Assembly: GCA_007121335.1 (NCBI GenBank)
Contig: SKLY01000201.1
Coordinates: 1 to 15,954 of the forward strand
Direction: 5' to 3'
Length of the DNA: 15,954 nt
From: Saprospiraceae bacterium
GTDB taxonomy: Bacteria; Bacteroidota; Bacteroidia; Chitinophagales; Saprospiraceae
The position numbers and the translations under genes were made by a program. The notes beneath the pieces were generated by a model. The model ran no database searches, had not been told where the DNA came from, and was given only the letters and a program-made list of their open reading frames with translations. Below, piece by piece: positions 1,652 through 15,954 of the stretch (its first letter is position 1; every line of letters starts with the position of its first letter).

Positions 1652-1834
1652 GGGTGGTAAATTTTTTAATTCCCTACCTGCAAAATTCCAACCACTTGTA
1701 CAAAAGCCACTTAATGCGGCCATTATGTCAGTGTGTTTCGGATTTTTTGTCAGAAATAGACTAAAAAAGACAGGTGCTTTTCCACTGAGGTAGCCGGAAT
1801 AAACTTCAGTCAAAATTGCCAATAGGCTGCAAAT

Positions 1835-3958
1835 TCATATTTCGATTCGCAGGGAAATATCCCAGTTCCTCCCGGCAGCAGTCTGATAATATCGTCCGCC
1901 AAAAGCGTTGAGGTCATTCCCCAGGCTGTAAATTGTATCAAATACATTGTCCAGTCCTGCTGAAAGAAAAATTTTATCTGCAAAACCCGTCTGGAATCCA
2001 TAGTTAAACCTCAGACTAAATACGTTCCAGGAGGATTGGAATTCAGTATTTTCATCCGTCAGCGGCAAACGGTCTGAATAGCGGTGTTGAAGATAAAGAC
2101 TCCCTGAACCAAAGAAACCAACTTTGAGCTCATTAAAGGCGGAGTGAGGAGCGACACCGGTTAGGTAATTGCCACTTAAATCAAATGGTCCAAAAATCTG
2201 ATCTCTGAAGTAGAAGAAATGTCCGGTATAAGTGTGCTTAAGTTGAATGTCAGAGAGAAAACGATTGTCGGAAGTTCGGAGCAATGGGTAGTTCAGTGAA
2301 AATTCCACGCCGAACTGATTCGTTCCACCGGAATTTCGGAACAGTACCACTCCGTCTTCATTGGTAAAGGTAGAAATAGACTCTGACAAGCGGTAGTAGA
2401 AGGTCGAAAGGTCCCAATGAACTCCCCTTTGTGGCATTATTCCCCGGTAACCCAATTCGAAATTCAATCCCCGTTCCGCTTCCAAATCTTCATTTAAACT
2501 GCCCTCGTTGGTGCGAAATTCGTCCAATGTAGGTGGCGAAAATCCCGCACTAACTGATGCAAACATAGATGATGTCTCATTGAATTTGTAAGAGGCAGCA
2601 ATCCGCGGCACCCATTCAGCTTGAAAATTTCTGGAAACTGCAAAGGGCGTTCCGGTTAGATTATCCACATTGCGGTCCACTTTGTAACCCACTGTATTTC
2701 GACTCAAACCCAGGGTCAACAACCAGTCACTACTCAATTCAGCCTCTGCCTGGGTGAAGAAAAAATAATTCCTGGTCCTGATGTCGTCGGCAAACCGCAT
2801 GGTGTCGCGGACGCCTTCTTTATTGCCAAAATTCCTGGCCGAAACCCTTCCCTGTTGAAATTCAGCACCCAGGACCAACCTCAACGGCAGACCGGCCAGG
2901 ACAGCATCTTTCCTAAAAACAGTGCGACCTCCGTAATCAGTACCCAAATCTTTTTTGTAATCGAGGATAAAGGGGTGGTCAAAATCCGTATTGGAGAGGA
3001 AAACAGAGCTGGAATTGGTAACATTGTTGCCCAAATTGCGCTCTATGGTGAAGCCAGTTAAAAGGGTGCGCTGCCGGATTGAGGAGTTTTGCTCTATACT
3101 GCCGGGACGAGACTGATACGGATCCTCTTTGAACTGCCCTAGAGTCAAACCACCGGGGATTTGATAAAAAAGGTCGGAATACAGAACATGAAAGCCCACC
3201 GGTTGATCGGCTGTGGGAAACCATCTGCCCGAAAAATTAAATACGGTGCGCTCCGTGCGGCTGTGTTCGCGGTGTCCATCGGATCGAAAATGATGAAGCC
3301 CCGCCGTGTATTGCATATCATCGGTAGCTCCGGACTTTTTCAAGCCCAGTCGATACATGTCAAATGAACCTGTGGCAGTTTGAGCAGTCAACCGGGACTC
3401 CTCATCTGAAAGGCGATTACTGAATTTTAATACGCCTCCATTTCCGGCACCGTAAATACTTCCAGCCGGCCCCTTCAGAATTTCGATTTGATCGGTTACA
3501 GCCACATCCAGTATATTGAGTGCTGTGGTCCCGTCGGCCAGTGTCAGTGGGAGATCGTTCCAGTAAACCTTAACATTTCGAACACCAAAGGGAGCGCGAA
3601 GAGAACTACCCCTCACCGACACCCTGTAGCTCGAAGGTGCACGTTGTTCAAGTCGCACCCCCGGCCTGGAATTGATGGCTTCATTCAAGCTCCTGCTTCC
3701 AAACGCCTCAAAATCTGCCGGACCCAACCGCTCTATCCCAGCAGCTTGTTGCAACAGCGGCCGATCACTCTCAAAGGCCCTTATCTCCACTTCGGGTAAA
3801 TATTCTCCACTTATTGGTTGTATGGTATCTTTAGCAGTTGTTGATGCATTTAAAAGGGAAGATGCATGAACGATATGATTAAAAGAAAACAGCAGAAAAA
3901 AAACCGGCAAAACCAACCTGGCTTTACTGATGAAGATGCATTGTAGTCCTTTTCTCAT
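1835..3958 (-). CDS. TonB-dependent outer-membrane receptor of about 700 aa (small-substrate class, not SusC-like), with plug and barrel.
   Basis: A 707-aa ORF with an N-terminal signal peptide (MRKGLQCIFISKARLVLPVFFLLFSFNHIVHA). It has a TonB-box-like LPEVEIRA, plug-domain motifs (RVSVRGSS..., NVKVYWNDLPL, IEILKGPAGSIYG) and a long beta-barrel rich in aromatic/Gly alternations. Confidence 0.88.
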   Translation of the reverse strand: MRKGLQCIFISKARLVLPVFFLLFSFNHIVHASSLLNASTTAKDTIQPISGEYLPEVEIRAFESDRPLLQQAAGIERLGPADFEAFGSRSLNEAINSRPGVRLEQRAPSSYRVSVRGSSLRAPFGVRNVKVYWNDLPLTLADGTTALNILDVAVTDQIEILKGPAGSIYGAGNGGVLKFSNRLSDEESRLTAQTATGSFDMYRLGLKKSGATDDMQYTAGLHHFRSDGHREHSRTERTVFNFSGRWFPTADQPVGFHVLYSDLFYQIPGGLTLGQFKEDPYQSRPGSIEQNSSIRQRTLLTGFTIERNLGNNVTNSSSVFLSNTDFDHPFILDYKKDLGTDYGGRTVFRKDAVLAGLPLRLVLGAEFQQGRVSARNFGNKEGVRDTMRFADDIRTRNYFFFTQAEAELSSDWLLTLGLSRNTVGYKVDRNVDNLTGTPFAVSRNFQAEWVPRIAASYKFNETSSMFASVSAGFSPPTLDEFRTNEGSLNEDLEAERGLNFELGYRGIMPQRGVHWDLSTFYYRLSESISTFTNEDGVVLFRNSGGTNQFGVEFSLNYPLLRTSDNRFLSDIQLKHTYTGHFFYFRDQIFGPFDLSGNYLTGVAPHSAFNELKVGFFGSGSLYLQHRYSDRLPLTDENTEFQSSWNVFSLRFNYGFQTGFADKIFLSAGLDNVFDTIYSLGNDLNAFGGRYYQTAAGRNWDISLRIEI

Positions 3959-4232
3959 GGTTCGAAGTAATTTTTTCAGTCGTAAACTGATAGCATAATG
4001 CCAGAAGCTGGAAAGGGTTTAGCAGTCAGCTATTGAAAAAATCAAATAGGCATGAGGCTTTCTGTACACTGAGTCGGGGAGACCGGATTTAAACCATCGG
4101 CCTTTGTGTCCCGAACGCAGCAGACTCACCGTAATGATCTACAGCGCGATATGCTTTTGGCAATCAAGTACAAGGTCTGAGAAGGCGAAGGAAATTAGCA
4201 GTTTTTTCGCTTGAAAGGCCAACGAAACTAAT

Positions 4233-5315
4233 CTACATTCTGTAAACCAGGGCATTGATATTCATTCCGGCACCCACGGAAGCAAGTACGACAATTTGGC
4301 CTTCCTCCAACTGGTGATTCTCAAGTTCGCCTCGCAGTATGAGATCCAGGAGGGTTGGTATTGTAGCAACCGAGGAATTTCCGAGCCAGGAGATGGTCAT
4401 TGGCATAATGTGGTCCGGGACATTTTTTTCACCGTACAGTTTATAGAGCCTTTTGAGGATGGCCTCATCCATTTTGCCGTTGGCCTGATGAATCAACAGT
4501 TTGGATACATCCCCAATTGGAATTTCGCATTTGTCAAGACAGTCTTTAATGGCCTGCGGTACATAAGTCAGGGCGTACTGGTACAATTTCCGACCGTTCA
4601 TTTTCAGGTAAATATTGCCCTCGTTGAGACCATTGGGGTGATAGGAGGCACCCATGTGCAGCATTTGTGAGTACTGATGGGCATCGGACCGTGCCGAGTG
4701 CCCGAGAATCCCTTTGGGTTCTGTACTGATTTCTCCCTGGAGGACCACGGCTCCCGCTCCATCGGAGTAAATCATGCTATCGCGGTCGTGCGGATCAGAA
4801 ACCCTTGACAAAACTTCGGCACCTATTACCAGTACTTTATTAAAGTCACCCGAGCGAATCAGGTAATCTGCCTGAACCACTGCCTGAAGCCACCCCGGAC
4901 ATCCAAATGCAATGTCGTAGCAAACACTTCCCGGGTTTTCAATACCAAGTCTGCTCTTTACACGAGATGCCAAACTGGGAACAAAATCCGAGCGATTACT
5001 GCCCTTTTTTACATCTCCAAAATTGTGTGCGAAGATAATGTGATCCAATTCCTCGCCCGAAATACCTGCCGATTCAATAGCGCGTTTTGCGGCTTCAAAG
5101 CCGAGATCGCTGGTCACCATTTCGTCCCCGGCATACCGCCGCTCATCGATGGTGGTGATTTGCTGAAATTTTTCTACAATCTCACTGTTCGTCTTGTCGT
5201 ATTTGCCACCGCTTTCATCCAAAAACTCCCTGTTCAGAAACTCTTCATTCTTCACCACTATATGCGGGACAAAACTCCCGGTTCCAATAATTCTGCTGTA
5301 GGTTCTCTTACTCAT
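4233..5315 (-). CDS. Beta-ketoacyl-ACP synthase III family protein (long FabH-like KAS III of 360 aa).
   Basis: The N-terminus is SRIIGTGSFVP. The active-site Cys lies in AFGCPGWLQA, His in LIHQANGKM and Asn in WLGNSSVATIP, giving a Cys-His-Asn triad of the KAS III/thiolase fold. Start is ATG at 5313-5315. Confidence 0.85.
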   Translation of the reverse strand: MSKRTYSRIIGTGSFVPHIVVKNEEFLNREFLDESGGKYDKTNSEIVEKFQQITTIDERRYAGDEMVTSDLGFEAAKRAIESAGISGEELDHIIFAHNFGDVKKGSNRSDFVPSLASRVKSRLGIENPGSVCYDIAFGCPGWLQAVVQADYLIRSGDFNKVLVIGAEVLSRVSDPHDRDSMIYSDGAGAVVLQGEISTEPKGILGHSARSDAHQYSQMLHMGASYHPNGLNEGNIYLKMNGRKLYQYALTYVPQAIKDCLDKCEIPIGDVSKLLIHQANGKMDEAILKRLYKLYGEKNVPDHIMPMTISWLGNSSVATIPTLLDLILRGELENHQLEEGQIVVLASVGAGMNINALVYRM

Positions 5316-5547
5316 CTGTACAATTTATAATGATCATCTGCATTCTTTTTGATTCCCGGCACAAAGAACGCCACTCCCTTAGATAACATTACATTCACTT
5401 GAATTGATCCTAAACAATTAACATCATACACACACATTAATTCAAATAAACCAACCAATTCGCGGACAAAAGGATCACATTCCCCTTAGAGCACAGGCTA
5501 AGTTATAAAAATTGCCACATAGTGTTACCGTTTTTTTGTACCATTAT

Positions 5548-5555
5548 TATCTTTG
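5548..5555 (+). promoter_or_regulatory. Candidate Bacteroidetes sigma-A -7 element (TAnnTTTG) for the downstream lipoprotein gene.
   Basis: tatctttg matches TAnnTTTG exactly. It lies 22 nt upstream of ATG 5577, with a T-rich/TTG region about 20 nt further upstream (5527-5538). Confidence 0.4.
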
Positions 5556-5576
5556 TAGGAAAGATAAAAGGTATTC

Positions 5577-6020
5577 ATGAAGCTTTGGTTATTAATTCTT
5601 GCTGTTGGTGCTTTCACTATTCTCCTTTCATGTGTGGCAGAAAAGCCGGAAGAAAGTCCCAAAATAACCACCACTGTTCAAAGTCCCAACGAGGATTCAG
5701 AACTAGCTTTACTGATGCGTTTTATGTACGATGATATGTACCGCGTCAAATCCGAGCTGGAAGCGGGTAAAAGAGCCAGTCTCGAGCACGACCCAAAGGA
5801 AATGTTTACAGCGGAACCAACAGATTCAGCCCAGGTTTCAACCGAGTCTTACAAAGCTTTCGGTCAGGCCTACATAGCAGCTTACAATACTTTCCACCAG
5901 GCAGAGCAAGCCAATTTAAAAGAGCACTTTGAAGTATTAGTGCATAGCTGCATGACCTGCCACCAAACAACTTGCCCCGGGCCCATGAGAAGAATTCAAA
6001 ATCTCTATTTTGATAATTAG
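5577..6020 (+). CDS. Small lipoprotein with a single C-terminal CXXCH haem-c motif, a putative class II c-type cytochrome of the cytochrome c'/c556 type.
   Basis: There is a signal peptide plus lipobox (LAVGAFTILLSC). The predicted mature part is about 125 aa and helical-looking, with the only Cys pair in CMTCH near the C-terminus (HSCMTCHQTTCPG). A C-terminal CXXCH in a ~125-aa protein is the class II cytochrome c arrangement. Confidence 0.6.
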   Translation: MKLWLLILAVGAFTILLSCVAEKPEESPKITTTVQSPNEDSELALLMRFMYDDMYRVKSELEAGKRASLEHDPKEMFTAEPTDSAQVSTESYKAFGQAYIAAYNTFHQAEQANLKEHFEVLVHSCMTCHQTTCPGPMRRIQNLYFDN

Positions 6021-6034
6021 TTCTAATCTCCTAC

Positions 6035-6056
6035 CCTGGAGTCAGGTTTTCCCTTT
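6035..6056 (+). terminator. Possible compact terminator hairpin (cctg-gagt-cagg) followed by a T-rich tract in the 21-bp convergent gap between the lipoprotein gene and pcm.
   Basis: A 4-bp stem (cctg/cagg) with loop gagt is followed by ttttccctttc. It overlaps the pcm stop codon. The stem is weak. Confidence 0.2.
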
Positions 6057-6701
6057 CAGCATGGGGACGAATCGGAAAAGTCCGTGAGAAGTTCGGGAAA
6101 AACTGCCATCTTCATTTCTCCTGTACCTGTACATTTTCTGAGTGCTTTTTGCCTTGCCGAGAGGGATAACAGCCAGACCACCAATCTTCAATTGACGGAG
6201 TAAATTCACAGGAGTTTCGTGGGCTGCGGCCGTAACCAATATTCTATCGAATGGTCCGTGATCGGGAAGTCCCTCCCATCCGTCCCCGTAGAAAACCTGA
6301 ACCTGGGGGTATCCGGCCCTTTCCAAATTAGCAATTGCAGTGTCTCTCAGTTTAGAAAACCTTTCAATGGAGTAAACTTCGGCCCCAAGTTCTGCGAGAA
6401 TGGCCGATTGGTAGCCACTGCCGGTTCCGATTTCCAGTACTCTGTGACCCGGTTCAAGTTCCAACAAGTCGGTTTGAATAGCAACAGTATAAGGCTGAGA
6501 GATAGTTTGGTCACAATCGATTTGAAAGGCCTGATCCCTATATGCCCACTCTTCAAAGCCTTTAGAGATGAAGAGATGGCGAGGCACTTTTCCAAAAGCT
6601 TCGAGAATACGCGGATCTTTGATTCCCTTGTTTTTGAGGTCTTCCACCATTCTCCGGCGCTGGCCCCTCATGAGGTAATTGTCCCCTTTCATTTGGTCCA
6701 T
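6042..6701 (-). CDS. pcm: Protein-L-isoaspartate O-methyltransferase.
   Basis: It carries RMVEDLKNKGIKDPRILEAF, the SAM-binding LEIGTGSGYQSAILAEL and a C-terminal VIPLG motif. The true start may be an internal Met (MRGQRRRM...) rather than the first ATG. Confidence 0.9.
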   Translation of the reverse strand: MDQMKGDNYLMRGQRRRMVEDLKNKGIKDPRILEAFGKVPRHLFISKGFEEWAYRDQAFQIDCDQTISQPYTVAIQTDLLELEPGHRVLEIGTGSGYQSAILAELGAEVYSIERFSKLRDTAIANLERAGYPQVQVFYGDGWEGLPDHGPFDRILVTAAAHETPVNLLRQLKIGGLAVIPLGKAKSTQKMYRYRRNEDGSFSRTSHGLFRFVPMLKGKT

Positions 6702-6755
6702 TCAGTAAGAATTTAAAGGTCGAATATACGAAAAAAGGGATGAAACAGGGCAGTA

Positions 6756-6794
6756 TCAAAAGGAAAAAGGCATGAATTTTTGACGATCCATGCC
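6756..6794 (-). terminator. Rho-independent terminator candidate downstream of rplY.
   Basis: On the minus strand the sequence reads ggcatgga-tcgtcaaaaat-tcatgcc, a 6-8 bp stem, followed by tttttcctttt. It lies 37 nt after the rplY stop. Confidence 0.5.
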
Positions 6795-6830
6795 CCTTGT
6801 GCCTGTTGATTAATTTCAGATAGGTAATTT

Positions 6831-7478
6831 TTATTCCTCAGCTGTCTCCTCAGTTGCAGCCTCTTCTCCTTCAGCAGCCGCCTCTTCTTTACCTTCTCCC
6901 TCTCTGGCCTCTTTGGATGCTGCGGACTTGAGTGCTCTTGGCACTTCAACTGAAACAATGGGAATTCCCGTTGCATTCATGATTTCCACACCCTCGGGCA
7001 CATCAATGTCCCTGACACGAAGTGCAGATCCCAATTTCAATCCGGAAACATCCACAAATACTTCATCCACGAGGAATTCGGGATTGGTTTTGATCTTAAC
7101 CTTACGCAACAATTGCTGCAATTTACCACCTTCCTTCACACCCGGAGAAACTCCTTTGATTCTGAGGGGTATTTGCACCTTAATGTTGACACCGTCCACC
7201 ATTTTGAGGAAGTCTGCGTGCATAATTTGTTCCGTTACAGGGTGGAACTGTATATCCTTAAGTATGCACTTGTGGGTTTTTCCATCTATATTGAGCTCAG
7301 CAAGTTTGAATGCGGGATTGTAAACAAGGTCTTTGAAATCCTTTTCCCTGCAAACTACCGAGAGAGTTTGATCACCTCCGTATATCACGCAGGGAACCAA
7401 CTTCTCTTTTCTGAGTCTTCTGGCTGCACTTTTTCCAGTGTTTTCTCGCTTTTTGGCCTCTATGGCTACCGTTTCCAT
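6831..7478 (-). CDS. rplY: 50S ribosomal protein L25 / general stress protein Ctc, with an acidic Ala/Glu-rich C-terminal tail.
   Basis: The N-terminus ...AKKRENTGKSAARRLRKEKLVPCVIYGG... is the L25/Ctc signature. The EAAAEGEEAATEETAEE tail is typical of long Ctc-type L25 proteins. Confidence 0.92.
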   Translation of the reverse strand: METVAIEAKKRENTGKSAARRLRKEKLVPCVIYGGDQTLSVVCREKDFKDLVYNPAFKLAELNIDGKTHKCILKDIQFHPVTEQIMHADFLKMVDGVNIKVQIPLRIKGVSPGVKEGGKLQQLLRKVKIKTNPEFLVDEVFVDVSGLKLGSALRVRDIDVPEGVEIMNATGIPIVSVEVPRALKSAASKEAREGEGKEEAAAEGEEAATEETAEE

Positions 7479-7511
7479 GCCTTTAAAATTTAGCTGTTTT
7501 CAAAAGGACTG

Positions 7512-7519
7512 CAAAGATA
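7512..7519 (-). promoter_or_regulatory. Candidate -7 element (TATCTTTG on the minus strand) for rplY.
   Basis: Plus-strand caaagata is TATCTTTG on the minus strand, an exact match to TAnnTTTG. It lies 34-41 nt upstream of the rplY ATG (7478). Confidence 0.35.
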
Positions 7520-7608
7520 GGCAAAATCCCTGATTAATAGCCAAGTATTTGATTGAAATATTTTTTGACTCAGGCGATTAAGCCAACCAGCCGTACATCT
7601 GAAATAAT

Positions 7609-8535
7609 CTACTCTATAAACAATGCTGATATAGAGCGGTGTTCGTGGGTATTTCTAATGGCTTTTGAAAACAGCTTTGCCACGCTGAGAACCGATATTT
7701 TGTCCAGTTTCTTTTTCAGCGGTATAGTATCTGTCACAATGAGTTCGTCTATATCAGATTGCTCGATGTTTTCATAGGCATTTCCGGAAAGGACCGGATG
7801 GGTGCAGATGGCTTTTACAGAGGCAGCACCTTTGTCCATCAGTGCTTTGGCAGCTTTGCAAAGTGTTCCCGCAGTATCGACAATGTCGTCCACCATGATG
7901 ACCTCAGCGTCTTTTACATCTCCAATCACAATGATCTCAGCCACCTCATTGGCCCTTTCTCTCCGCTTGTCACAAATCACCAGGTCGCAGCCGAAATACT
8001 TGGCAAATTGTCGGGCTCTTTTTACTCCGCCGACATCCGGAGAAGCGAATTTCACCCTTGACAAATCCCGCTTGCTGAGGTAGGGCACGAATATGGCATT
8101 GCTCTTCAAGTGGTCAACAGGTATGTCAAAAAATCCCTGTATTTGGTCTGCATGAAAATCAAGTGTCATCACTCTGTCCGCTCCGGCAGCCTGCAAAAGA
8201 TTGGCGATGAGTTTGGCCGATATCGGCACCCTGGCTTTGTCCTTCCTATCCTGTCGCGCATAACCAAAATAAGGCATCACAGCTGTAATGTAGCTGGCAG
8301 AGGCCCGTTTTGCGGTATCGATCATCAAAAGCAACTCCATCAGATTGTCCGTGGGAGAAAAAGTACTCTGAATGAGAAAGGTGTAAGCCCCCCTGACGGA
8401 CTCTCTTATTTCTGTCTGCATTTCACCATCGCTGAACCTGTGGAGTTTGATATCTCCGGGAGCACCTCCGTAGTGGTGAATTATCTTATCTGCGAGGTAT
8501 TGAGAACCGGAGCCGGAGAAGAGCTTAATTTCCAT
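7609..8535 (-). CDS. prs: Ribose-phosphate pyrophosphokinase (PRPP synthetase).
   Basis: MEIKLFSGSGSQYLADKI... is the classic Prs N-terminus. DFHADQIQGFFDIPVDHL and the PRPP-binding loop VIMVDDIVDTAGT are present. The ORF track begins at a TTG (8544), but the ATG at 8533-8535 gives the canonical Prs N-terminus. Confidence 0.94.
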   Translation of the reverse strand: MEIKLFSGSGSQYLADKIIHHYGGAPGDIKLHRFSDGEMQTEIRESVRGAYTFLIQSTFSPTDNLMELLLMIDTAKRASASYITAVMPYFGYARQDRKDKARVPISAKLIANLLQAAGADRVMTLDFHADQIQGFFDIPVDHLKSNAIFVPYLSKRDLSRVKFASPDVGGVKRARQFAKYFGCDLVICDKRRERANEVAEIIVIGDVKDAEVIMVDDIVDTAGTLCKAAKALMDKGAASVKAICTHPVLSGNAYENIEQSDIDELIVTDTIPLKKKLDKISVLSVAKLFSKAIRNTHEHRSISALFIE

Positions 8536-8573
8536 AAGGACCAATGCAATTTCAACATATTAAAAGATGGCAA

Positions 8574-8581
8574 CAAAAGTA
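8574..8581 (-). promoter_or_regulatory. Candidate -7 element (TACTTTTG on the minus strand) for prs.
   Basis: Plus-strand caaaagta is TACTTTTG on the minus strand, an exact match to TAnnTTTG. It lies 39-46 nt upstream of the prs ATG. Confidence 0.35.
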
Positions 8582-8775
8582 ATCAAAAAGTAACACTCCA
8601 CCGGAAAAAGCCAATATTTTCACCCGATAAAATGCCGTTGGTCGGCAAATGTGGTTAGTTTGTAAAAAAGATGGTCTCCTGTAATCAATTAACACCAAAA
8701 GTCCATTATATTTATGCCTTGTGAAAAAAGGTAAGCAGCTTCATCAATTAACCATTACTTGAAAAACGCATACTT

Positions 8776-9375
8776 ATGGGATTTTCGGGACTTGAAGAGT
8801 GGTGGCTGGCACTGGAAACAGAGCCCAGAATATTCTTTATCATAGCTGCTGTAGCCTCCGTGTTTTTCATTCTGCTTTTTATCGTTAGCCTGTTAGGTCT
8901 GGATGCGGATACGGATATAGATGGTGACATGGATACTGACCTGGGAGAAGTGGGGGATTTCTCCGTGTTATCTGTCCGTGGTGTGGTGGCCTTTTTCACT
9001 TTTTTCGGATGGGGAGGTTTTCTAATCTTAAATTCAGGTGGCAGCTTGCTACTCGCATTGGGATTTTCACTCTTTGCCGGACTGGCAGCCCTCTATATAG
9101 TAGGATACTTGCTCTACGTATTTAACAATTTGACCGAAACCGGCAATTGGGATATCCGCAATGCACTCTACCAGGAGGGAGAAGTTTATTTGCCCATTGG
9201 CGGTGATAAAGAGCCCGGGCGGGTGAATGTAATAGTAGGCGGAGTGCTGCGCGAATTGGAAGCTGTTTCTGTTGATTCAGAACCCATCAATACAGGCTCT
9301 CTGGTCTCTATAGTAGGGATTAGAGACGACGGCACATTGGTAGTCGAAGTCATTGAACAAATAGAAGAACCTTAA
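8776..9375 (+). CDS. NfeD-like membrane protein (YuaF/YqiJ type): three TM helices, an Asp-rich periplasmic loop and a C-terminal OB-fold beta-barrel.
   Basis: Hydrophobic segments are IFFIIAAVASVFFILLFIVSLLGL, VVAFFTFFGWGGFLIL and LLLALGFSLFAGLAALYIVGYLLYVF. The loop DADTDIDGDMDTD lies between TM1 and TM2. The C-terminal GEVYLPIGGDKEPGRVNVIVGGVLRELEAVSVDSEPINTGSLVSIVGIRDDGTLVVEV is typical of the NfeD beta-barrel domain. The gene ends 15 bp before the flotillin gene. Confidence 0.8.
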   Translation: MGFSGLEEWWLALETEPRIFFIIAAVASVFFILLFIVSLLGLDADTDIDGDMDTDLGEVGDFSVLSVRGVVAFFTFFGWGGFLILNSGGSLLLALGFSLFAGLAALYIVGYLLYVFNNLTETGNWDIRNALYQEGEVYLPIGGDKEPGRVNVIVGGVLRELEAVSVDSEPINTGSLVSIVGIRDDGTLVVEVIEQIEEP

Positions 9376-9390
9376 TAAAAAAATTTAGCC

Positions 9391-10920
9391 ATGGTACAAT
9401 CATCTTTAATTATTATTGCAGGTCTCGTTTTTCTGGTACTGCTCATGCTGCTTTATGCCGTCACACGCTACAAGCGGTGTCCGAGTGATAAAATCCTGGT
9501 TATATACGGAAGAACAGGGGCGGGCTCGGCCAAGTGTTTGGCCGGTGGTGCAGCCTTTGTCTGGCCGGTTATTCAGGACTATCAATTTCTCGACCTGACT
9601 CCCATTTCCATTGATGTCAATCTGCGGGGTGCACTGAGTAAACAAAACATACGGGTGAATGTCCCCTCCCGGTTCACTGTGGCCGTTTCCAACGATGCAA
9701 GTATTATGACCAATGCGGCTGAACGCTTGTTGGGAAAATCTAGAACAGAAATTGCCGACTTGTCAAAGGACATCATTTTTGGACAATTGAGGCTGGTGGT
9801 TGCGACCATGGATATCGAGGAGATAAACAGCGACCGCGATAAGTTTCTCTCCAATGTGACCAGTAATGTAGGATCGGAACTGAAAAAAATCGGACTTGCC
9901 CTCATCAACGTGAATGTCACCGACATCGAAGATGAGTCCAAATACATCGAGGCGCTCGGTAAAGAGGCCGCCGCTCACGCTATCAACGAGGCACGAGTAC
10001 GCGTGGCAGAAAGAGAAAGAGAGGGTTCCATCGGTGAGGCAGAAGCCAAAAGGGACCAGCGGGTCAAAGTGGCCAATGCAGAAGCAGACGCGGTATCGGG
10101 TGAGGCGGAAGCCAAAAAAGAGGAACGAGTGCGGGTAGCAGAGGCAAACGCAAGGTCTATCGAAGGCGAAAACCGCTCTCAGGTAAGTATTGCAAAATCT
10201 GACTCTGAGAGACGTAAAAAGGAAGCAGAAGCCAACAACCAGGCACTTGCCTCCGAAAAAGTAGAAGAGGCCAGGGCACTCGAAATTGCCTACCAGGCAG
10301 AGCAAAAAGCCGAAAAATCCAGGGCCGACAGAGAACGAGCAAGTCTGGCAGCAGACACCATCGTCAAGGCTGAAATCGCCAAGCGAAAAGCGGAAATTGA
10401 CGCCGAAGCCATGGCAGAAACCATCCGCAGAAAAGCTAAGGGTGAAGCTGATGCCATCTACATGAAAAAAGAAGCCGAAGCAAGGGGAATGTATGAATTG
10501 CTAACCAAGCAGGCCGATGGATTTGAAAAAATTGTCAAAGCCTCAGGTGGCGGACCACGCGATGCGGTATTAATGATGATTGCAGATAAACTCGAGGACC
10601 TCGTCAAAACCCAGGTGGACGCCATCAAAAACATCAAGATCGACAAGGTCACTGTCTGGGAAGGAGGCAACCAAAACGATGGTGAAGCCAACTCCACCAG
10701 CAAGTTCATCAGCGGCCTTTACAAATCGGTTCCTCCAATGAGTGACCTTTTCAATATGGCTGGAATGGACCTTCCCGGCTACCTTGGCAAAGCCAATAAG
10801 GGGGATGAGGATATCATCCGCGAACTGCCCGTCAAGGCAAAAAAGGAAGATGAAAGTCGTGATGCGAAAGAAGATGATAAGAGTAAAAAGGACGACAGTA
10901 ATTCAGGCAAAAAAGAGTGA
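9391..10920 (+). CDS. Flotillin-family protein (SPFH/band-7 domain plus EA-repeat coiled coil; FloT/YuaG/YqiK-like, 509 aa).
   Basis: An N-terminal TM anchor is followed by an SPFH domain (KRCPSDKILVIYGRTGAG...FVWPVIQDYQFLDLTPISIDV...). A long Ala/Glu-rich flotillin region has repeated EAEAK units, and the tail is Lys/Asp/Glu-rich. The length equals that of B. subtilis FloT. The gene forms an operon with the NfeD-like gene. Confidence 0.9.
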   Translation: MVQSSLIIIAGLVFLVLLMLLYAVTRYKRCPSDKILVIYGRTGAGSAKCLAGGAAFVWPVIQDYQFLDLTPISIDVNLRGALSKQNIRVNVPSRFTVAVSNDASIMTNAAERLLGKSRTEIADLSKDIIFGQLRLVVATMDIEEINSDRDKFLSNVTSNVGSELKKIGLALINVNVTDIEDESKYIEALGKEAAAHAINEARVRVAEREREGSIGEAEAKRDQRVKVANAEADAVSGEAEAKKEERVRVAEANARSIEGENRSQVSIAKSDSERRKKEAEANNQALASEKVEEARALEIAYQAEQKAEKSRADRERASLAADTIVKAEIAKRKAEIDAEAMAETIRRKAKGEADAIYMKKEAEARGMYELLTKQADGFEKIVKASGGGPRDAVLMMIADKLEDLVKTQVDAIKNIKIDKVTVWEGGNQNDGEANSTSKFISGLYKSVPPMSDLFNMAGMDLPGYLGKANKGDEDIIRELPVKAKKEDESRDAKEDDKSKKDDSNSGKKE

Positions 10921-11002
10921 TGCAGCCCGGTGATTAATTGCGCAGATTGAAACAGTCTGCAGTGGGGATTGTTAGAGACCAATCACCTGTTAATTATTTG
11001 GA

Positions 11003-11905
11003 TTGGGCCAAAGAGAAAATATACTGGGTTTTGCACTGCTGTTCATCCTTGGACTGACCTGGGGGTCATCTTATATCCTCATAAAAAAAGGCCTGATAGC
11101 TTTTTCTCCTCTGCAAGTGGCCATGTTGAGGTTTGGCCTTTCAGGTCTGGCATTTGCGCCACTTGCATTCAGGTATTTTTTCAAGCTATCGGCCACCGAA
11201 ATTTGGCGACTGGTTTTTGTCGGTCTGTTGGGGAGTGGACTGCCGGCAATTCTTTTTGCTTTGGCCCAAACCCGCATAAGCAGTTCGGCTGCCGGCATCC
11301 TCAGTTCTTTTACCCCATTGGCTACCTATTTTTTCGGACTGCTATTTTTCGGATTGGTTTTTTACCGCCGTAAATTCACAGGGGTGATAATCGGGCTGGC
11401 AGGGGCTATACTACTTATAGTCCAAAGCAACAACGGGGAACAAAGTGGCGATGTCTGGTACGGGGCACTTGTGCTGCTGGCCACCATTTGCTACGCTCTC
11501 AACGGAAACCTGATCAAGCACTATTTCCAAAATCACTCCCCTTTTCTAATTGCCACCATGAGTTTTTCACTAACGGGCTTTCCGGTCTTTGTGCTGCTCT
11601 TTGCCACCGATTTTACGGAAGTGCTGGCAACCCATCCACAGGGCTGGTCCTCGCTGGGCTACCTGGCCATCCTGGCTTTCGTAGGAACAGTGGCAGCATC
11701 GATTGTATTTTTCAAACTCGTACAGATAACCGATGCACTTTTTGCCTCCTCAGTCAGTTATTTGGTACCGCTTTTCGCCGTATTCTGGGGTGTGGTTGAC
11801 GGGGAAAACATTCACCTTTTTGACCTGGTTGGCATGCTGCTGATACTCGCCGGGATTTACTTTTCAAGAAGTCAAAAACCAACAGTTGAAACAGTACCCA
11901 AATAG
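11003..11905 (+). CDS. EamA-family (DMT superfamily) transporter with ten predicted TM helices in two EamA repeats.
   Basis: The 300-aa polytopic protein has an N-terminal LTWGSSYILIKKG and a second-half repeat, both EamA-like. The first in-frame start after the upstream stop is TTG at 11003. The next ATG would delete TM1. Confidence 0.82.
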   Translation: MGQRENILGFALLFILGLTWGSSYILIKKGLIAFSPLQVAMLRFGLSGLAFAPLAFRYFFKLSATEIWRLVFVGLLGSGLPAILFALAQTRISSSAAGILSSFTPLATYFFGLLFFGLVFYRRKFTGVIIGLAGAILLIVQSNNGEQSGDVWYGALVLLATICYALNGNLIKHYFQNHSPFLIATMSFSLTGFPVFVLLFATDFTEVLATHPQGWSSLGYLAILAFVGTVAASIVFFKLVQITDALFASSVSYLVPLFAVFWGVVDGENIHLFDLVGMLLILAGIYFSRSQKPTVETVPK

Positions 11906-12080
11906 TATTTCAAAATCCCATTTTCACTCTTTCACCAAAAAAATATCAATCCACAATTCTTCTCACTCCGGGACGAGGATATTATTTCATCCAAAATCAG
12001 CTAAGCAGGCCGATTTCAATCCCCTGTAATTGAACAATCATCCTGTTCCGGTTTTGTATTCTCAAGTAAAATGCCGCGAA

Positions 12081-12674
12081 ATGGACCGAATAAAAAAATG
12101 GTTTGGAGCCGGGGAAAAGAAGTCGGAAGAAGCCGGACAAGCCTATAAAAGTGAGCTGGAAGACGACATCGTCAATCGCGATGATTTCCTCAAATGGTCA
12201 GATAAAAAAGGTATCCTGGCTGACTTCCTTAAGGACCTGAGGACTGAATACGGCAAATATCTGACAGAGTCTGAGGAGCACGAAGAGTGGGTGGATTTTC
12301 TCAGAAGTCAGGGAGCAGATGGGTTCATGGTTCATACGCAAAAATACCCCGGAACCCTGTCCAAATGGATATATTTGGCAGAATACCTCAAAGACCAGAC
12401 GATGAGCTGGGGCTATAAACTATACTCCTCCGAAGAAGGCTCTGATGGCGGCGATGCCCCGGTCACTTATTTGAGATACTACTTTAAACCACCGATTAAA
12501 AACAAGCTTTCCAAACCCATTGACCAAATTTTTGGCAACATCACCATCGAGCTGAAAATGAGTGACGGCAATTCCGAATCACTGAAATACCAGGCACTCC
12601 ACTACAGCGACCGAAACTATCAGCCACCGAGAAATATCGGCCTTTTGTATGAGAGTATTTTTGAGCAGGAGTGA
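12081..12674 (+). CDS. Hypothetical cytoplasmic acidic protein of about 197 aa, with no recognisable domain.
   Basis: The ORF has host-like GC of about 50% and begins MDRIKKWFGAGEKK... It has no signal peptide and is rich in E/D/K/Y/W. The track's TTG start at 12030 is possible, but ATG 12081 is preferred. Confidence 0.6.
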   Translation: MDRIKKWFGAGEKKSEEAGQAYKSELEDDIVNRDDFLKWSDKKGILADFLKDLRTEYGKYLTESEEHEEWVDFLRSQGADGFMVHTQKYPGTLSKWIYLAEYLKDQTMSWGYKLYSSEEGSDGGDAPVTYLRYYFKPPIKNKLSKPIDQIFGNITIELKMSDGNSESLKYQALHYSDRNYQPPRNIGLLYESIFEQE

Positions 12675-12688
12675 GGTACAGTTAATTG

Positions 12689-12708
12689 ATGAGTCCACTC
12701 CAAAAACC
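12689..12708 (+). repeat. Left terminal inverted repeat (20 bp) atgagtccactccaaaaacc.
   Basis: It is the reverse complement, at 19/20 positions, of 12977-12996 (ggttttcggagtggactcat). The core atgagtccactcc is a 13/13 match. Confidence 0.9.
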
Positions 12709-12976
12709 TCTTTTTATTACAAATGGCTGCAAAGGCCAATTTCTTCGCCCCCTCCCCAAAGCATAGCCTGCCCCCCCAAAGCATTGGGGGGGCGGGAGGA
12801 CAAGAAAGCTATGGGGGTCTTTCCTCAACGTAGCTAAGGCTACGACTGAGGGCTACCCACCCGCTTCGCGGTTCAATCGCTTGAATGTCCCCCGGACGTT
12901 CACTCCCTAAACGGGGGATCGGTCTTTCACCTTCTTCCTCGATCTTGAATTTTTCGCTCATTTTCATGCACAAATT

Positions 12977-12996
12977 GGTTTTCGGAGTGGACTCAT
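12977..12996 (+). repeat. Right terminal inverted repeat (20 bp).
   Basis: ggttttcggagtggactcat is the reverse complement of the left IR at 19/20 positions. Confidence 0.9.
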
Positions 12997-13025
12997 TTAT
13001 TTGTGTTAACGTAATGTTAAATTTT

Positions 13026-13033
13026 TGGGGGGG
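13026..13033 (+). repeat. G8 homopolymer tract about 60 nt upstream of the Cys-rich ORF start.
   Basis: tttttgggggggg is read directly from the sequence. It is the longest G/C run in the window and sits in an otherwise AT-rich intergenic region. Confidence 0.9.
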
Positions 13034-13093
13034 GAATTTTTCTTGTAAACCTTCCGTTGCACACATGAAACTTTACAAAAACATAAAATTTGA

Positions 13094-13492
13094 GTGGTGA
13101 AATTAACAACCTTATTTACGTCAATTTACTTCTTAGTAGTTATTTCGTTAGGATTTCTTTATCATCCTAATAATTTTGAATCAAATACAATTACTTCATA
13201 TATTTCTTCAGCAGAAGGTTCAATTGAATCCAACAAAGAGGCACATTATTTTTTACCGCGATTTACGTTGGTTCAATATAATTGTACGGCAAGTGTATTT
13301 GCCTATTGTTGTTGCCATTGTGTTGGAGACGCACCCTGCTCAATGACATGTTATGAAGCACCAGGGAATTTTTTTGCGTGCCATTTTGGTGGAGGATTTG
13401 AATGCTCACCCTCTAGCTTAGGATTATGTGTAGTAAACCCTGGTCAGGAATGTATGGGGGAAAGTTGTTGCAGGCCGTGTTGGGGACCTTAA
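13094..13492 (+). CDS. Small signal-anchored cysteine-rich protein of 132 aa, with 14 Cys in the last 69 residues and a CCCHC motif. It could be a secreted Cys-rich peptide, toxin or RiPP-like precursor.
   Basis: A 399-nt ORF in roughly 30% GC DNA is unlikely by chance. It starts at GTG (13094 or 13097) with no ATG available. The N-terminal hydrophobic segment is LFTSIYFLVVISLGFLYHP. The C-terminus is YCCCHCVGDAPCSMTCYEAPGNFFACHFGGGFECSPSSLGLCVVNPGQECMGESCCRPCWGP. Confidence 0.5.
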   Translation: MVKLTTLFTSIYFLVVISLGFLYHPNNFESNTITSYISSAEGSIESNKEAHYFLPRFTLVQYNCTASVFAYCCCHCVGDAPCSMTCYEAPGNFFACHFGGGFECSPSSLGLCVVNPGQECMGESCCRPCWGP

Positions 13493-13544
13493 ACTTACTT
13501 AAACTGTCTGATAATTATTTTTATACTTTTTCAAATCATTAATT

Positions 13545-15134
13545 ATGAACTTGTTGTACAATACTTCTGGTTTGCTTAGGCAAAAATCACTTTACATAAT
13601 TGGTTTGATTGGTTTTGGTGGTTTATTATTCTACACCATTCCCTCGTATTATTATTCACAATTTGGAGAATCTCAATCCCCGGTAGAATTGGATGAACGC
13701 AATTTATCCGAAATTTGGGACTTTAGCATTGAAACCGATGGTGTGAATTTATTTTATGACACCCTTTTATTAACACCACTTCAACCAAATCCCTATTCTA
13801 ATCTTAATCGGGTCTTTAAACAAGAAGTGATTAATGAAAATCTCTATATGATGACCGAAGAAATGCCCGGGCAGGTTTTTAAGTATGGAACAGATGGAAC
13901 TTTCAAAGGGGTGATTGGAAGTACTAATTCTCAAGGTATGTCACGTAACTTTACATTCGACATATGCCCTGAAAGCGGGAATATAATTATTGCAAATACC
14001 TTAGATTCGACCATCAAAATTTATTCTCCTAAAGGGGAATTGCTCCGGAAAAAAGAGCCTGATTTCTTCTTCATAGACTTCAAATACTTTAGCAGCACAT
14101 CTAATTTCCTATTCCTTATCATTCAACCTGATCCCGGTTTTTCAATAAGCCAGCACCATAAACTCTACCTGGCAGATAGCAATATTACTATAATTGATAG
14201 TTTGTTTCCGTTTACTCCAAATCAATTGCATAAAGAACTCGGAGTATCCAGATCACTTAAGCAAAACCCAAATAAAGCCAATAAAGTATTTTTTGCAGAC
14301 ATGCTTCTGGGTGAAATTTATGAGATAGATGACAACGGCAATAAAACCTTAGCTTATAAAGTGGAGGATGGTATTGAAAACAGGGCAGATTCTTTAAGTG
14401 CCTTAAACCCCAATAACCTTAATAATCAAGATGTTAATAATAATCTTAAGTTCTATTCCATATTCGATTATCACCCTGGAAGTAATTTATTAGCGGTAGC
14501 TAAAACTAGCCTTGAGGGTCCCCGAAAAAACCTGATTTTTTCAAAGGATCACGGTACCGGATTAAAATTTGCCAGAGGAATTCGTTCGACGGGACCCTTT
14601 TTGGAAGGCCATCCCTTTATGTTTCACTTTGGTATTATTGACTTTATGAAAGACGATACGATAGGAACTATTATATCACCTGATTTGTGGAGTTTTATGA
14701 AGCCAACACTAACAGATCCTTCGATTGTTTTGGATCATACGATCCATTTGCCAGATTCTATTGAATATCCAATCCTGAAAATGGCAGTTTTAAAGGAAAG
14801 TTTCTTCGATGAAGAAGCATTGTCCTATTCCCGTTTAATTGATAAAAGTGAGTCAAGTAATAATGATTCGGGACAGAAATCCGATTACTTTTTGTATCCT
14901 AATCCAACAACAGGATTTGTACAAGTAGGAACCCATTCTTCCCAGAACAAGGAGGATTTAAGAAATATGACAGTAAAAATCTTTAATATTAATGGAGAGT
15001 TACTTGGAGAGTTTCCAGCAGAGAGCAAAATTGATTTAAGACAATTGGCAATTAGGACCGGAACCTATTTATTCTCTTTAGAAAATGAACTGGGTGAGCA
15101 AATTACTTCCAGGCCATTTTTATATCACTATTGA
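13545..15134 (+). CDS. T9SS-secreted cargo protein of 529 aa: N-terminal hydrophobic signal/anchor, central beta-propeller-like domain of unknown function and C-terminal Por-secretion-system sorting domain (type A CTD).
   Basis: The C-terminal ~80 aa read ...DYFLYPNPTTGFVQVG...MTVKIFNINGELLGEFPA...LRQLAIRTGTYLFSLENELGEQITSRPF... They carry the YPNPttG, IfninGelv and GtYlfsl hallmarks of the T9SS CTD. The middle region has Gly/Thr/Asp-rich strands (KYGTDGTFKGVIGST..., IIIANTLDSTIKIYSPKGELL) suggesting a beta-propeller or NHL-like fold. Confidence 0.8.
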   Translation: MNLLYNTSGLLRQKSLYIIGLIGFGGLLFYTIPSYYYSQFGESQSPVELDERNLSEIWDFSIETDGVNLFYDTLLLTPLQPNPYSNLNRVFKQEVINENLYMMTEEMPGQVFKYGTDGTFKGVIGSTNSQGMSRNFTFDICPESGNIIIANTLDSTIKIYSPKGELLRKKEPDFFFIDFKYFSSTSNFLFLIIQPDPGFSISQHHKLYLADSNITIIDSLFPFTPNQLHKELGVSRSLKQNPNKANKVFFADMLLGEIYEIDDNGNKTLAYKVEDGIENRADSLSALNPNNLNNQDVNNNLKFYSIFDYHPGSNLLAVAKTSLEGPRKNLIFSKDHGTGLKFARGIRSTGPFLEGHPFMFHFGIIDFMKDDTIGTIISPDLWSFMKPTLTDPSIVLDHTIHLPDSIEYPILKMAVLKESFFDEEALSYSRLIDKSESSNNDSGQKSDYFLYPNPTTGFVQVGTHSSQNKEDLRNMTVKIFNINGELLGEFPAESKIDLRQLAIRTGTYLFSLENELGEQITSRPFLYHY

Positions 15135-15249
15135 GTCAACCTTTCATTATTAATGAAAAAACGCTCGATGTGACATATTAATCATGGCTACTGGTACTTT
15201 AAATTTTTCCGTCCTTAATATATACAACCAAAAAACAATTCCCGGGCCA

Positions 15250-15954
15250 TTAAGGCAAGAAAGCCACAACACGAAGCGGCGCACCACTGCCGCCCCTGAT
15301 TGTCCTAGGTAAAGCCATAATCCAGAATCCCTCTGGCGGGAGTTCGTCCAGGTAGGCGAGGTTTTCATAGGCTGTCACGCCCTGGGCAAACAAAATGCGA
15401 TGGGTCATAAAGCCTTTCGATTTCCCGTAATCGATGCCTGAGGTGTCGAGACCAACGGCTTTTATATCTCTGTTTTCAACCAACCAGGTGGCTGCATGGG
15501 GGTGTATGCCCGGAAAGGATAGATTGTCAACACCTTCCTGTCTGCTGAGGTCGGTTCCGGTATACGCCAATTTGTCGGGATAAAACTTCCAAAATCTAGT
15601 GTTGAAAAGTACGATGGCACCATGTGGTATGCGTCCGTGTTCCTCCTCCCATGCCTGCAAATCACCGACCGTTATTTGATAATCTCGATCACTGGCCGCC
15701 TGGGATTTTACATCCACTAAAATTCCCGGCCCGTTTAGTTGGTCTATTCCGATTTGATCTACCGTTTTGCCATTTTCTGCAAAATGAATGGGCGCATCAA
15801 AATGGGTTTCTCCGTGCTCTTCGGCTGCAAAGTGAAAGGAAGAATAGTAATAACCCCCTTCGGTAATTCCGTCAAAAACAGTGTCGTGAGAAAAGGGAAT
15901 ATTGGTAGGCCAATAGATCGACTCCTCGTCAAAAGCCCAGGTCAGATCAATCCA
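15250..15954 (-). CDS. Cyclase-family / kynurenine formamidase-like metal hydrolase (PF04199-type). The C-terminus is present; the N-terminus lies beyond the window.
   Basis: The reverse-complement translation runs into the window edge as WIDLTWAFDEESIYWPTNIPF...HFAAEEHGETHFDAPIHFAENGKTVDQIGIDQLNGPGILVDVKS... It contains the HxGTHxDAPxH cyclase-family metal-binding motif. The track's 155-aa ORF is only the part after an internal Met. Confidence 0.82.
   Translation of the reverse strand, partial: WIDLTWAFDEESIYWPTNIPFSHDTVFDGITEGGYYYSSFHFAAEEHGETHFDAPIHFAENGKTVDQIGIDQLNGPGILVDVKSQAASDRDYQITVGDLQAWEEEHGRIPHGAIVLFNTRFWKFYPDKLAYTGTDLSRQEGVDNLSFPGIHPHAATWLVENRDIKAVGLDTSGIDYGKSKGFMTHRILFAQGVTAYENLAYLDELPPEGFWIMALPRTIRGGSGAPLRVVAFLP

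Follow-up and report, generated by a model that had tools for sequence, protein, structure and literature searches.

Densely disulfide-bonded mini-proteins are common among eukaryotic toxins, defensins and signalling ligands and are rare in bacteria. Conotoxins, defensins and knottins are made as signal-pro-mature precursors of disulfide-rich peptides, Dkk1, sclerostin and Norrin are eukaryotic cysteine-rich ligands of the six-bladed YWTD propellers of LRP5/6, and in methylamine and aromatic amine dehydrogenases a light subunit with six disulfides accompanies a seven-bladed propeller heavy subunit. What we take to be a bacterial parallel is found in Bacteroides, where small NVEALA proteins (PF14055) are presumably encoded beside genes for DUF5128 or "BF3164 family" propellers. 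Here we describe a cysteine-rich small-protein gene (13097..13492, + strand, stop codon included) in a 15,954-nucleotide stretch of DNA from a Saprospiraceae bacterium (assembly GCA_007121335.1, contig SKLY01000201.1, positions 1 to 15,954, the whole of which is called the window below). It is followed by a gene for a propeller (13545..15134, + strand) carrying a C-terminal domain of the type IX secretion system (T9SS), and, from the sequences of the pair and of their homologues, we think it moderately probable that the small protein is an exported, disulfide-rich mini-protein which acts as partner of the T9SS-secreted propeller, the two being encoded on a low-GC cassette.

The locus resembles the NVEALA arrangement in that a short protein with a hydrophobic N-terminus has a DUF5128-type propeller as its neighbour in a member of the Bacteroidota, and no function is known for either system. 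It differs in that the NVEALA motif is lacking, with PF14055 unmatched at E ≤ 1 for the window protein and at E ≤ 10 for its homologues, in that NVEALA proteins are not cysteine-rich, and in that the propeller here has a T9SS tail instead of a lipoprotein signal; as it does not match the NVEALA model, the window protein can be considered an analogue at most. A literature search on NVEALA, DUF5128, BF3164 or a cysteine-rich T9SS partner returned nothing relevant. The pairing of Dkk1, sclerostin or Norrin with LRP5/6 likewise brings a small disulfide-rich extracellular protein to a six-bladed propeller and gives a plausible docking model, by analogy only, but there is no homology, the organisms belong to different kingdoms, the propellers are YWTD in the one case and NHL/DUF5128 in the other, and binding in the pair described here is hypothetical. 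With the precursors of conotoxins, defensins and knottins the small protein shares a signal, a variable spacer and a cysteine-dense C-terminal domain in which the cysteines are even in number, but it is bacterial, its domain is larger (~75 aa, with up to seven putative disulfides), and its framework, which includes a CCC triplet, is unmatched and has no Pfam match. The family is novel and its general class, of signal, spacer and disulfide-rich domain, is a familiar one. In the methylamine dehydrogenases, too, an exported subunit of ~130 aa packed with disulfides is encoded beside a propeller subunit, but that enzyme is periplasmic and the propeller here is six-bladed and T9SS-secreted; assignment of the window protein as a methylamine dehydrogenase light chain was rejected, there being no Pfam match, no conservation of the tryptophans that would give the tryptophan tryptophylquinone (TTQ) cofactor, and no mauG or amicyanin genes.

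The small-protein gene encodes 131 aa from the GTG at 13097, or 132 aa if the GTG at 13094 is used. The open reading frame (ORF) at 13094..13492 (+ strand) is present and translates as an earlier note on this DNA had described it, and the counts made there also proved correct, with 14 cysteines within the last 69 residues, two histidines, and a cysteine spacing that agrees exactly with the sequence. The cysteines are at positions 64, 72, 73, 74, 76, 82, 86, 96, 104, 112, 120, 125, 126 and 129, with His75 inside a CCCHC motif and His97 directly after Cys96. No nucleotide shuffle of the ORF reproduced 14 cysteines in a 69-aa window (0/20,000, with a maximum of 12), so the enrichment is not due to chance, and the neighbouring proteins (529, 214 and 300 aa) contain one cysteine apiece. 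The figure of 30% GC given for this DNA in the earlier note was not borne out, as the ORF has 38% GC and its surroundings 34-39%, compared to ~46% in the remainder of the window. Three segments can be distinguished in the protein, all on the + strand: a hydrophobic N-terminal segment (residues 4-23, LTTLFTSIYFLVVISLGFLY, 13103..13162) that may be a Sec signal peptide or a signal anchor, a linker, or perhaps a propeptide, that is rich in Ser, Asn and Glu and poorly conserved across homologues (residues 24-54, 13163..13255), and the conserved cysteine-rich domain (residues 55-132, 13256..13489), which holds all 14 cysteines and was defined from three-homologue alignments.

Two divergent homologues of the small protein were obtained, each with a propeller gene next door, from the search for homologues and conserved neighbours that had been proposed for this ORF. 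The first was located via synteny, since the 529-aa propeller of the window is 32% identical (E 4e-50) to P0010, a protein annotated as "MAG: 6-bladed beta-propeller [Saprospirales bacterium]" (MAG, metagenome-assembled genome), and on its 64-kb contig (L004) the gene directly upstream of the propeller gene encodes a cysteine-rich protein with 41% identity to the window protein (BLASTP, E 7e-12). An in-frame ATG 42 nt before the called start of this gene adds a hydrophobic N-terminus (MKYLVCLLFILSIT). The second, P0011 (110 aa, contig L005), was found by an exhaustive phmmer search of 1.84 billion representative proteins at a library-wide E of 2e-4 and is 34% identical to the window protein with a pairwise E of 5e-12 (pairwise E values among the homologues being 5e-12, 7e-12 and 3e-9). 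In all three lineages (3/3) the small gene is followed on the same strand by a gene for a T9SS-tailed propeller of ~500-530 aa, after an intergenic gap of 52 nt in the window, 26 nt in L004 and 40 nt in L005, and no terminator-like site was found in the 52-nt gap. The rank order of identity to the window agrees for the two members of the pair, at 41% for the small protein and 32% for the propeller in L004 and at 34% and 21% respectively in L005. The upstream divergent ORFs (85 aa in the window and 77 aa in L004) were considered as a third conserved gene and rejected, as they are unrelated to each other.

The C-terminus of the 529-aa protein carries a T9SS type A sorting domain (residues ~450-529, 14892-15131, + strand), matched by Por_Secre_tail PF18962 with 37.0 bits (cutoff 27) and by TIGR04183 with 31.3 bits (cutoff 23), and its N-terminus is hydrophobic. 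Its description as an exported six-bladed propeller of DUF5128/NHL-like type rests on homology and on this tail: PF17170 (DUF5128, cutoff 22.9) scores 37.8 bits with P0010 and 36.3 bits with the L005 protein, which is 525 aa long and also has the T9SS tail, and gives no direct match to the window protein. A profile of the three propellers matched NHL-repeat propellers in the PDB (E 3e-8); in PDB sequence searches with single proteins the L005 propeller matched none and P0010 a designed propeller only. Foldseek, run on a low-confidence AlphaFold 2 (AF2) model of the window propeller with a mean predicted local distance difference test score (pLDDT) of 49, gave as its best match 4RAA, the uncharacterised exported protein BF0058 of B. 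fragilis, and after it NHL domains. None of the candidate catalytic residues is shared by all three propellers, the histidines of a GHxFxFHF stretch, for instance, being replaced in L005, which leads us to read the propeller as a putative binding scaffold rather than an enzyme.

That the small ORF is a genuine gene under purifying selection is seen from a close ortholog. Identical copies of the small protein are present on the contigs of two NCBI MAGs and one Logan assembly, and these carry no evolutionary information because their DNA is the same as that of the window. A JGI (Joint Genome Institute) metagenome contig, L135, carries the locus at 95.6% identity (47/1,057 positions differ). Mismatches are densest upstream (11.9%), sparsest within the ORF (2.3%) and intermediate in the propeller gene (5.3%). 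Read in the frame of the ORF, the differences divide into 5 synonymous and 4 nonsynonymous ones (pN/pS, the ratio of nonsynonymous to synonymous differences per site, is 0.22; it is 0.14 for the propeller gene), one of the four being a change of GTG to ATG at window 13097, and in the other two frames nearly every change would be nonsynonymous. Five of the 8 informative changes are synonymous where 21% would be expected under neutrality (binomial P ~0.014). The three amino-acid differences from the ortholog P0002 all fall within residues 14-50, and the 74-codon cysteine domain has 1 synonymous change and 0 amino-acid changes. As a separate observation, the DNA of this domain (13268-13489) has 1 change in 222 nt, giving a pS of 0.022 compared to 0.169 for the adjoining propeller gene; this could be a small-number effect, the result of a recent recombination event, or a sign that the mRNA is under additional constraint.

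The same comparison bears on the start codon, which had been thought to make translation less certain. The codon in the window is indeed GTG, but the doubt drawn from it is lifted by the ortholog, and since the L135 ortholog has ATG at 13097 and both distant homologues begin with MK, the second GTG, at 13097, is predicted as the most likely translation start. The GTG, together with the lack of any family match and a public annotation that reads only "hypothetical protein", is also what might commend the view that the AT-rich DNA of the islet happens to be open in this frame by chance. That view is refuted by the syntenic protein homologues with conserved cysteine spacing in two divergent lineages, where a lack of homologues anywhere had been named as a sign of a spurious ORF, and by the ATG start of the ortholog, the frame-specific synonymous bias and the shuffle test (0/20,000).

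All three small proteins have the same four-part layout of N-terminus, linker, short motif and cysteine-rich domain. The N-termini consist of M-K, which puts a Lys at position 2-3, followed by an uncharged hydrophobic run of 14-21 aa with small residues at candidate -3 and -1 positions, the linkers are acidic and Ser/Asn-rich and vary in sequence and in length (25-35 aa), and between the linker and the cysteine-rich region lies the conserved motif P-x-[RN]-[FW]-x-L-V. Within the domain the order is an invariant cysteine, CCC, F-x-C-x-[FW]-G-G-x-F-E-C, L-G and further cysteines, and several Phe, Tyr, Trp and Gly residues are conserved among them. The exported parts contain 14, 14 and 10 cysteines (window, L004 and P0011 respectively), an even number in every homologue, with 10 common to all three proteins and 14 to two of them. 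Those missing from P0011 are Cys76, Cys82, Cys86 and one of Cys125/126, which is the pattern expected from the loss of two whole disulfides. The CCCHC motif to which the earlier note drew attention is present in the window protein, but only its CCC is kept in the homologues, in which His75 is replaced by F or S, and His97 by Y or A.

These features bear on whether the cysteines form disulfides or instead bind a metal (Zn, Cu or Fe) in a metallothionein-like or cluster-binding module. A cysteine content of 20%, the CCC, CC and C-x-C motifs and the two histidines of the window protein would fit metal binding, as would the weak and non-specific fold matches of the propeller model to metal- or cofactor-binding propellers. 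We consider this option unlikely, however, and weakened relative to when it was raised from the window protein, as neither histidine is conserved, no CxxC pair or CxxCxxC motif is conserved, the many conserved aromatic residues are unlike those of metallothioneins, there is no metal-binding family match, and the cysteine count is even in all three proteins and lower by four in P0011. The N-terminus is moreover of Sec type with no twin-arginine motif, from which it follows that the small protein should be exported unfolded into an oxidising compartment. Of the possibilities first put forward for this protein, a disulfide-knotted secreted protein is thus the one that we favour, on the Sec-type N-termini, the even cysteine numbers, the conserved aromatic and glycine residues and the secreted partner encoded next to it.

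The earlier note had called the small protein signal-anchored. A hydrophobic N-terminus is certainly present, and its uncharged run of 20 aa in the window protein is of transmembrane length, which would suit a signal anchor. If the signal were not cleaved, the cysteine-rich domain would be tethered to the inner membrane, where it might serve as a periplasmic immunity protein, inhibitor or holdase for the propeller until export by the T9SS; the absence of a T9SS sorting domain on the small protein, the ~30-aa linker that follows, as in tethered periplasmic domains, and the continuous helix (residues 3-22) predicted by AF2 would all be in keeping with this. That helix was the sole moderately confident element of the model, which was built from a three-sequence alignment (pLDDT 41). 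We regard the tethered arrangement as rather unlikely, since in the L004 homologue this run is no longer than 14 aa, plausible -3/-1 cleavage sites occur in all three proteins, and an immunity role is not matched by any conserved toxic or enzymatic motif in the propeller, the candidate GHxFxFHF histidines not being kept in L005. Neither a twin-arginine motif nor a lipobox cysteine is found on reading any of the three small proteins, and candidate cleavage sites in the window protein lie after VIS (before L) and after SLG (before F). Because of the runs of 14-21 aa and the small -3/-1 residues in the homologues, a cleavable Sec signal peptide appears at least as likely as a signal anchor.

A third possibility raised from the window protein was that it is the precursor of a ribosomally synthesised and post-translationally modified peptide (RiPP), of SCIFF, ranthipeptide, sactipeptide or lanthipeptide-like kind, in which case the maturase would be encoded elsewhere or would be the propeller itself. 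Being a small protein whose C-terminal half is cysteine-rich, it does look like the SCIFF and ranthipeptide precursors, and its neighbour is an uncharacterised protein for which an enzymatic role is formally possible. Nevertheless we hold this to be very unlikely. The lack of a maturase, already remarked upon for the window, was confirmed and extends to the L004 locus, as neither the 16 kb of the window nor the 10 kb to each side of the L004 pair contains a gene of the radical SAM/SPASM, LanB/C/M, YcaO or peptidase-transporter kinds; the NCBIfam and Pfam models of SCIFF and other RiPP precursors matched none of the three small proteins; and the propeller lacks conserved catalytic residues. In contrast to a RiPP precursor, with its leader, the N-terminus is of Sec type and conservation is inverted, the N-terminal part being variable and the 75-aa C-terminal part conserved, including non-cysteine core residues, as in a folded domain.

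The reading that we favour, of an exported disulfide-rich mini-protein with a T9SS-secreted propeller as its partner, would work as follows. The two genes are probably co-transcribed and both products would be exported via Sec, the small one as a precursor in which a Sec-type N-terminus and ~30 aa of variable linker precede the conserved C-terminal domain (~75 aa). Oxidative folding in the periplasm would give this domain a compact structure with 5-7 disulfides. The propeller would be handed to the T9SS by its C-terminal domain and would end up either surface-bound or released into the medium, and the small protein would be its dedicated partner, whether as ligand, subunit or inhibitor/chaperone, in the periplasm or at the surface. 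A ligand or subunit would be expected to travel with the propeller, and an inhibitor or chaperone to stay behind, perhaps tethered to the membrane by an uncleaved N-terminus. The gene pair would itself travel as one low-GC cassette, mobile or dispensable, in Bacteroidota of the Saprospirales-like kind.

Several points weigh against this reading. The AF2 models (pLDDT 41, unusable, for the small protein and pLDDT 49, weak, for the propeller) are too poor to show an interface, the small protein lacks a T9SS sorting domain of its own (PF18962/TIGR04183), scans for sigma-70 and TAnnTTTG promoters were at background with no canonical promoter or terminator identified, the counts of synonymous and nonsynonymous changes are small (8 informative changes), and there are only three lineages, in which the adjacency of the two genes could be due in part to their having been transferred together on a single cassette and not to a coupling of function.

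The strict pairing with a T9SS-secreted propeller offers a first clue from gene context to a branch of the large uncharacterised DUF5128 family of the Bacteroidota and raises the question of whether small proteins can be dedicated partners of T9SS cargo, with a practical weight that is limited by there being three lineages, all metagenomic. Taken further, the pair might be a secreted module of two components, belonging to Saprospirales that glide and may be predatory, in which a mini-protein with up to seven disulfides docks on the T9SS propeller, either to be exported piggy-back or to hold a harmful propeller inactive until export. As a whole this is speculative and we do not expect it to hold, but if either piggy-back export or a propeller inactive until export were true, it would be a new principle of T9SS cargo handling along with a new disulfide-rich fold.

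The cysteine-rich domain family is, as judged from sequence comparison, previously undescribed and rare, being present in three lineages that are all metagenome-derived. The accession series and names of the MAGs (DLM2.Bin58, locus tag EA362_, TVR accessions; PXCR/PULW) would fit an origin in soda-lake datasets. Pfam, NCBIfam, PHROG, PADLOC and PDB sequences gave no meaningful match for the small-protein family, the sub-threshold matches to KdpC (E 0.07) and to the CARF_TM model (E 0.07) being due to the hydrophobic N-terminus, and a PDB sequence search with the profile of the small domain returned none at E ≤ 10. The comparison with models of cysteine-rich peptide families (SCIFF, ranthipeptide, knottin) that had been suggested as a check yielded no match either, and there was no Pfam match for any of the three proteins to knottin, defensin, granulin, hydrophobin, EGF, PSI or methylamine dehydrogenase light chain families. 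Against 5.8 billion protein clusters, a single-sequence, word-indexed search retrieved the window protein alone, and the domain profile retrieved the three known members and none further. A profile scan of JGI metagenome contigs found no relative, a scan of GTDB genomes with the propeller profile found the L004 contig only, and viral contigs and plasmids contained no further family members. Two candidates were discarded: 8 matches in JGI contigs to a degenerate DNA pattern for F[AT]CX[FW]GGXFEC, which lie in stop-ridden frames and are chance matches, and the phmmer match P0012 (838 aa, with repeated CCIHCFG), which was rejected as compositional or spurious.

Both genes lie in a low-GC accessory islet of 2.56 kb (12677..15236), delimited by its GC content (~35% compared to ~46% elsewhere in the window) and by comparison with a related contig, and made up of an inverted-repeat element, the cysteine-rich gene and the propeller gene. 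The related contig, L136, is that of a MAG whose flotillin, annotated as "MAG: ... [Saprospirales bacterium]", clusters at ≥90% with the flotillin of the window; it is collinear with positions 1-12676 at 92% identity, then has ~140 bp of unrelated sequence in place of the 2,560 bp of the window, with similarity returning briefly at 15237-15404, so that the islet is an indel between the window and L136. The L004 pair also lies in a low-GC patch (25-33% compared to ~40%), with flanking genes unrelated to those of the window. The shared low-GC islets with different flanks, taken with the gap in L136, suggest that the two genes move or are lost as a unit.

Upstream of the cysteine-rich gene, a 318-nt element (12684-13001) lies between it and the stop codon of the preceding gene (12674). 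It is bounded by 30-nt terminal inverted repeats (12684-12713 and 12972-13001) that are 83% complementary, and its GC-rich core includes a G7/C7 hairpin (12767-12796), CGTAGC-TAAG-GCTACG (12829-12844) and CCCCCGG...CGGGGG. It is predicted to fold far more stably than shuffled sequences as DNA (z = -6.1) and moderately more so as + strand RNA (z = -2.5). For the GC-rich upstream segment no Rfam family reached its gathering score, there being a sub-threshold suhB-like match only, and none of the fetched loci contained a second copy of the element. In appearance this element, which belongs to the 2.56-kb indel, is either a miniature inverted-repeat transposable element (MITE) or a structured leader. 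The 85-aa ORF on the opposite strand (12809-13066, - strand), which is called in public MAG annotations (L001 and L002), overlaps this element and has no homologue, and is probably a spurious call. An exact 15-mer, ACGTAGCTAAGGCTA, from the CGTAGC-TAAG-GCTACG hairpin, is found upstream of both cysteine-rich genes in the window (12828-12842) and in L005 (positions 11-25), at -266 and -278 from the start respectively, the rest of the two upstream regions being unalignable; ~120 matches to it in viral contigs were set aside as chance (flank identity 19.4 of 80). The hairpin shared with L005 may be a cis element or a coincidence.

Downstream of the islet, and convergent with the propeller gene, a PF04199 putative cyclase/arylformamidase-like gene (15250-15954, - strand; 265 aa in L002) exits at the end of the window. 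In L136 only a 168-nt remnant of this gene is kept (79% identity), and in the region where the islet is missing that contig carries a different gene, for a predicted lipoprotein of 434 aa (13986-15290, - strand) with a lipobox-like N-terminal ...LPFLVVSC. The lipoprotein gene and the cyclase remnant suggest that this intergenic region is a hotspot of gene turnover.

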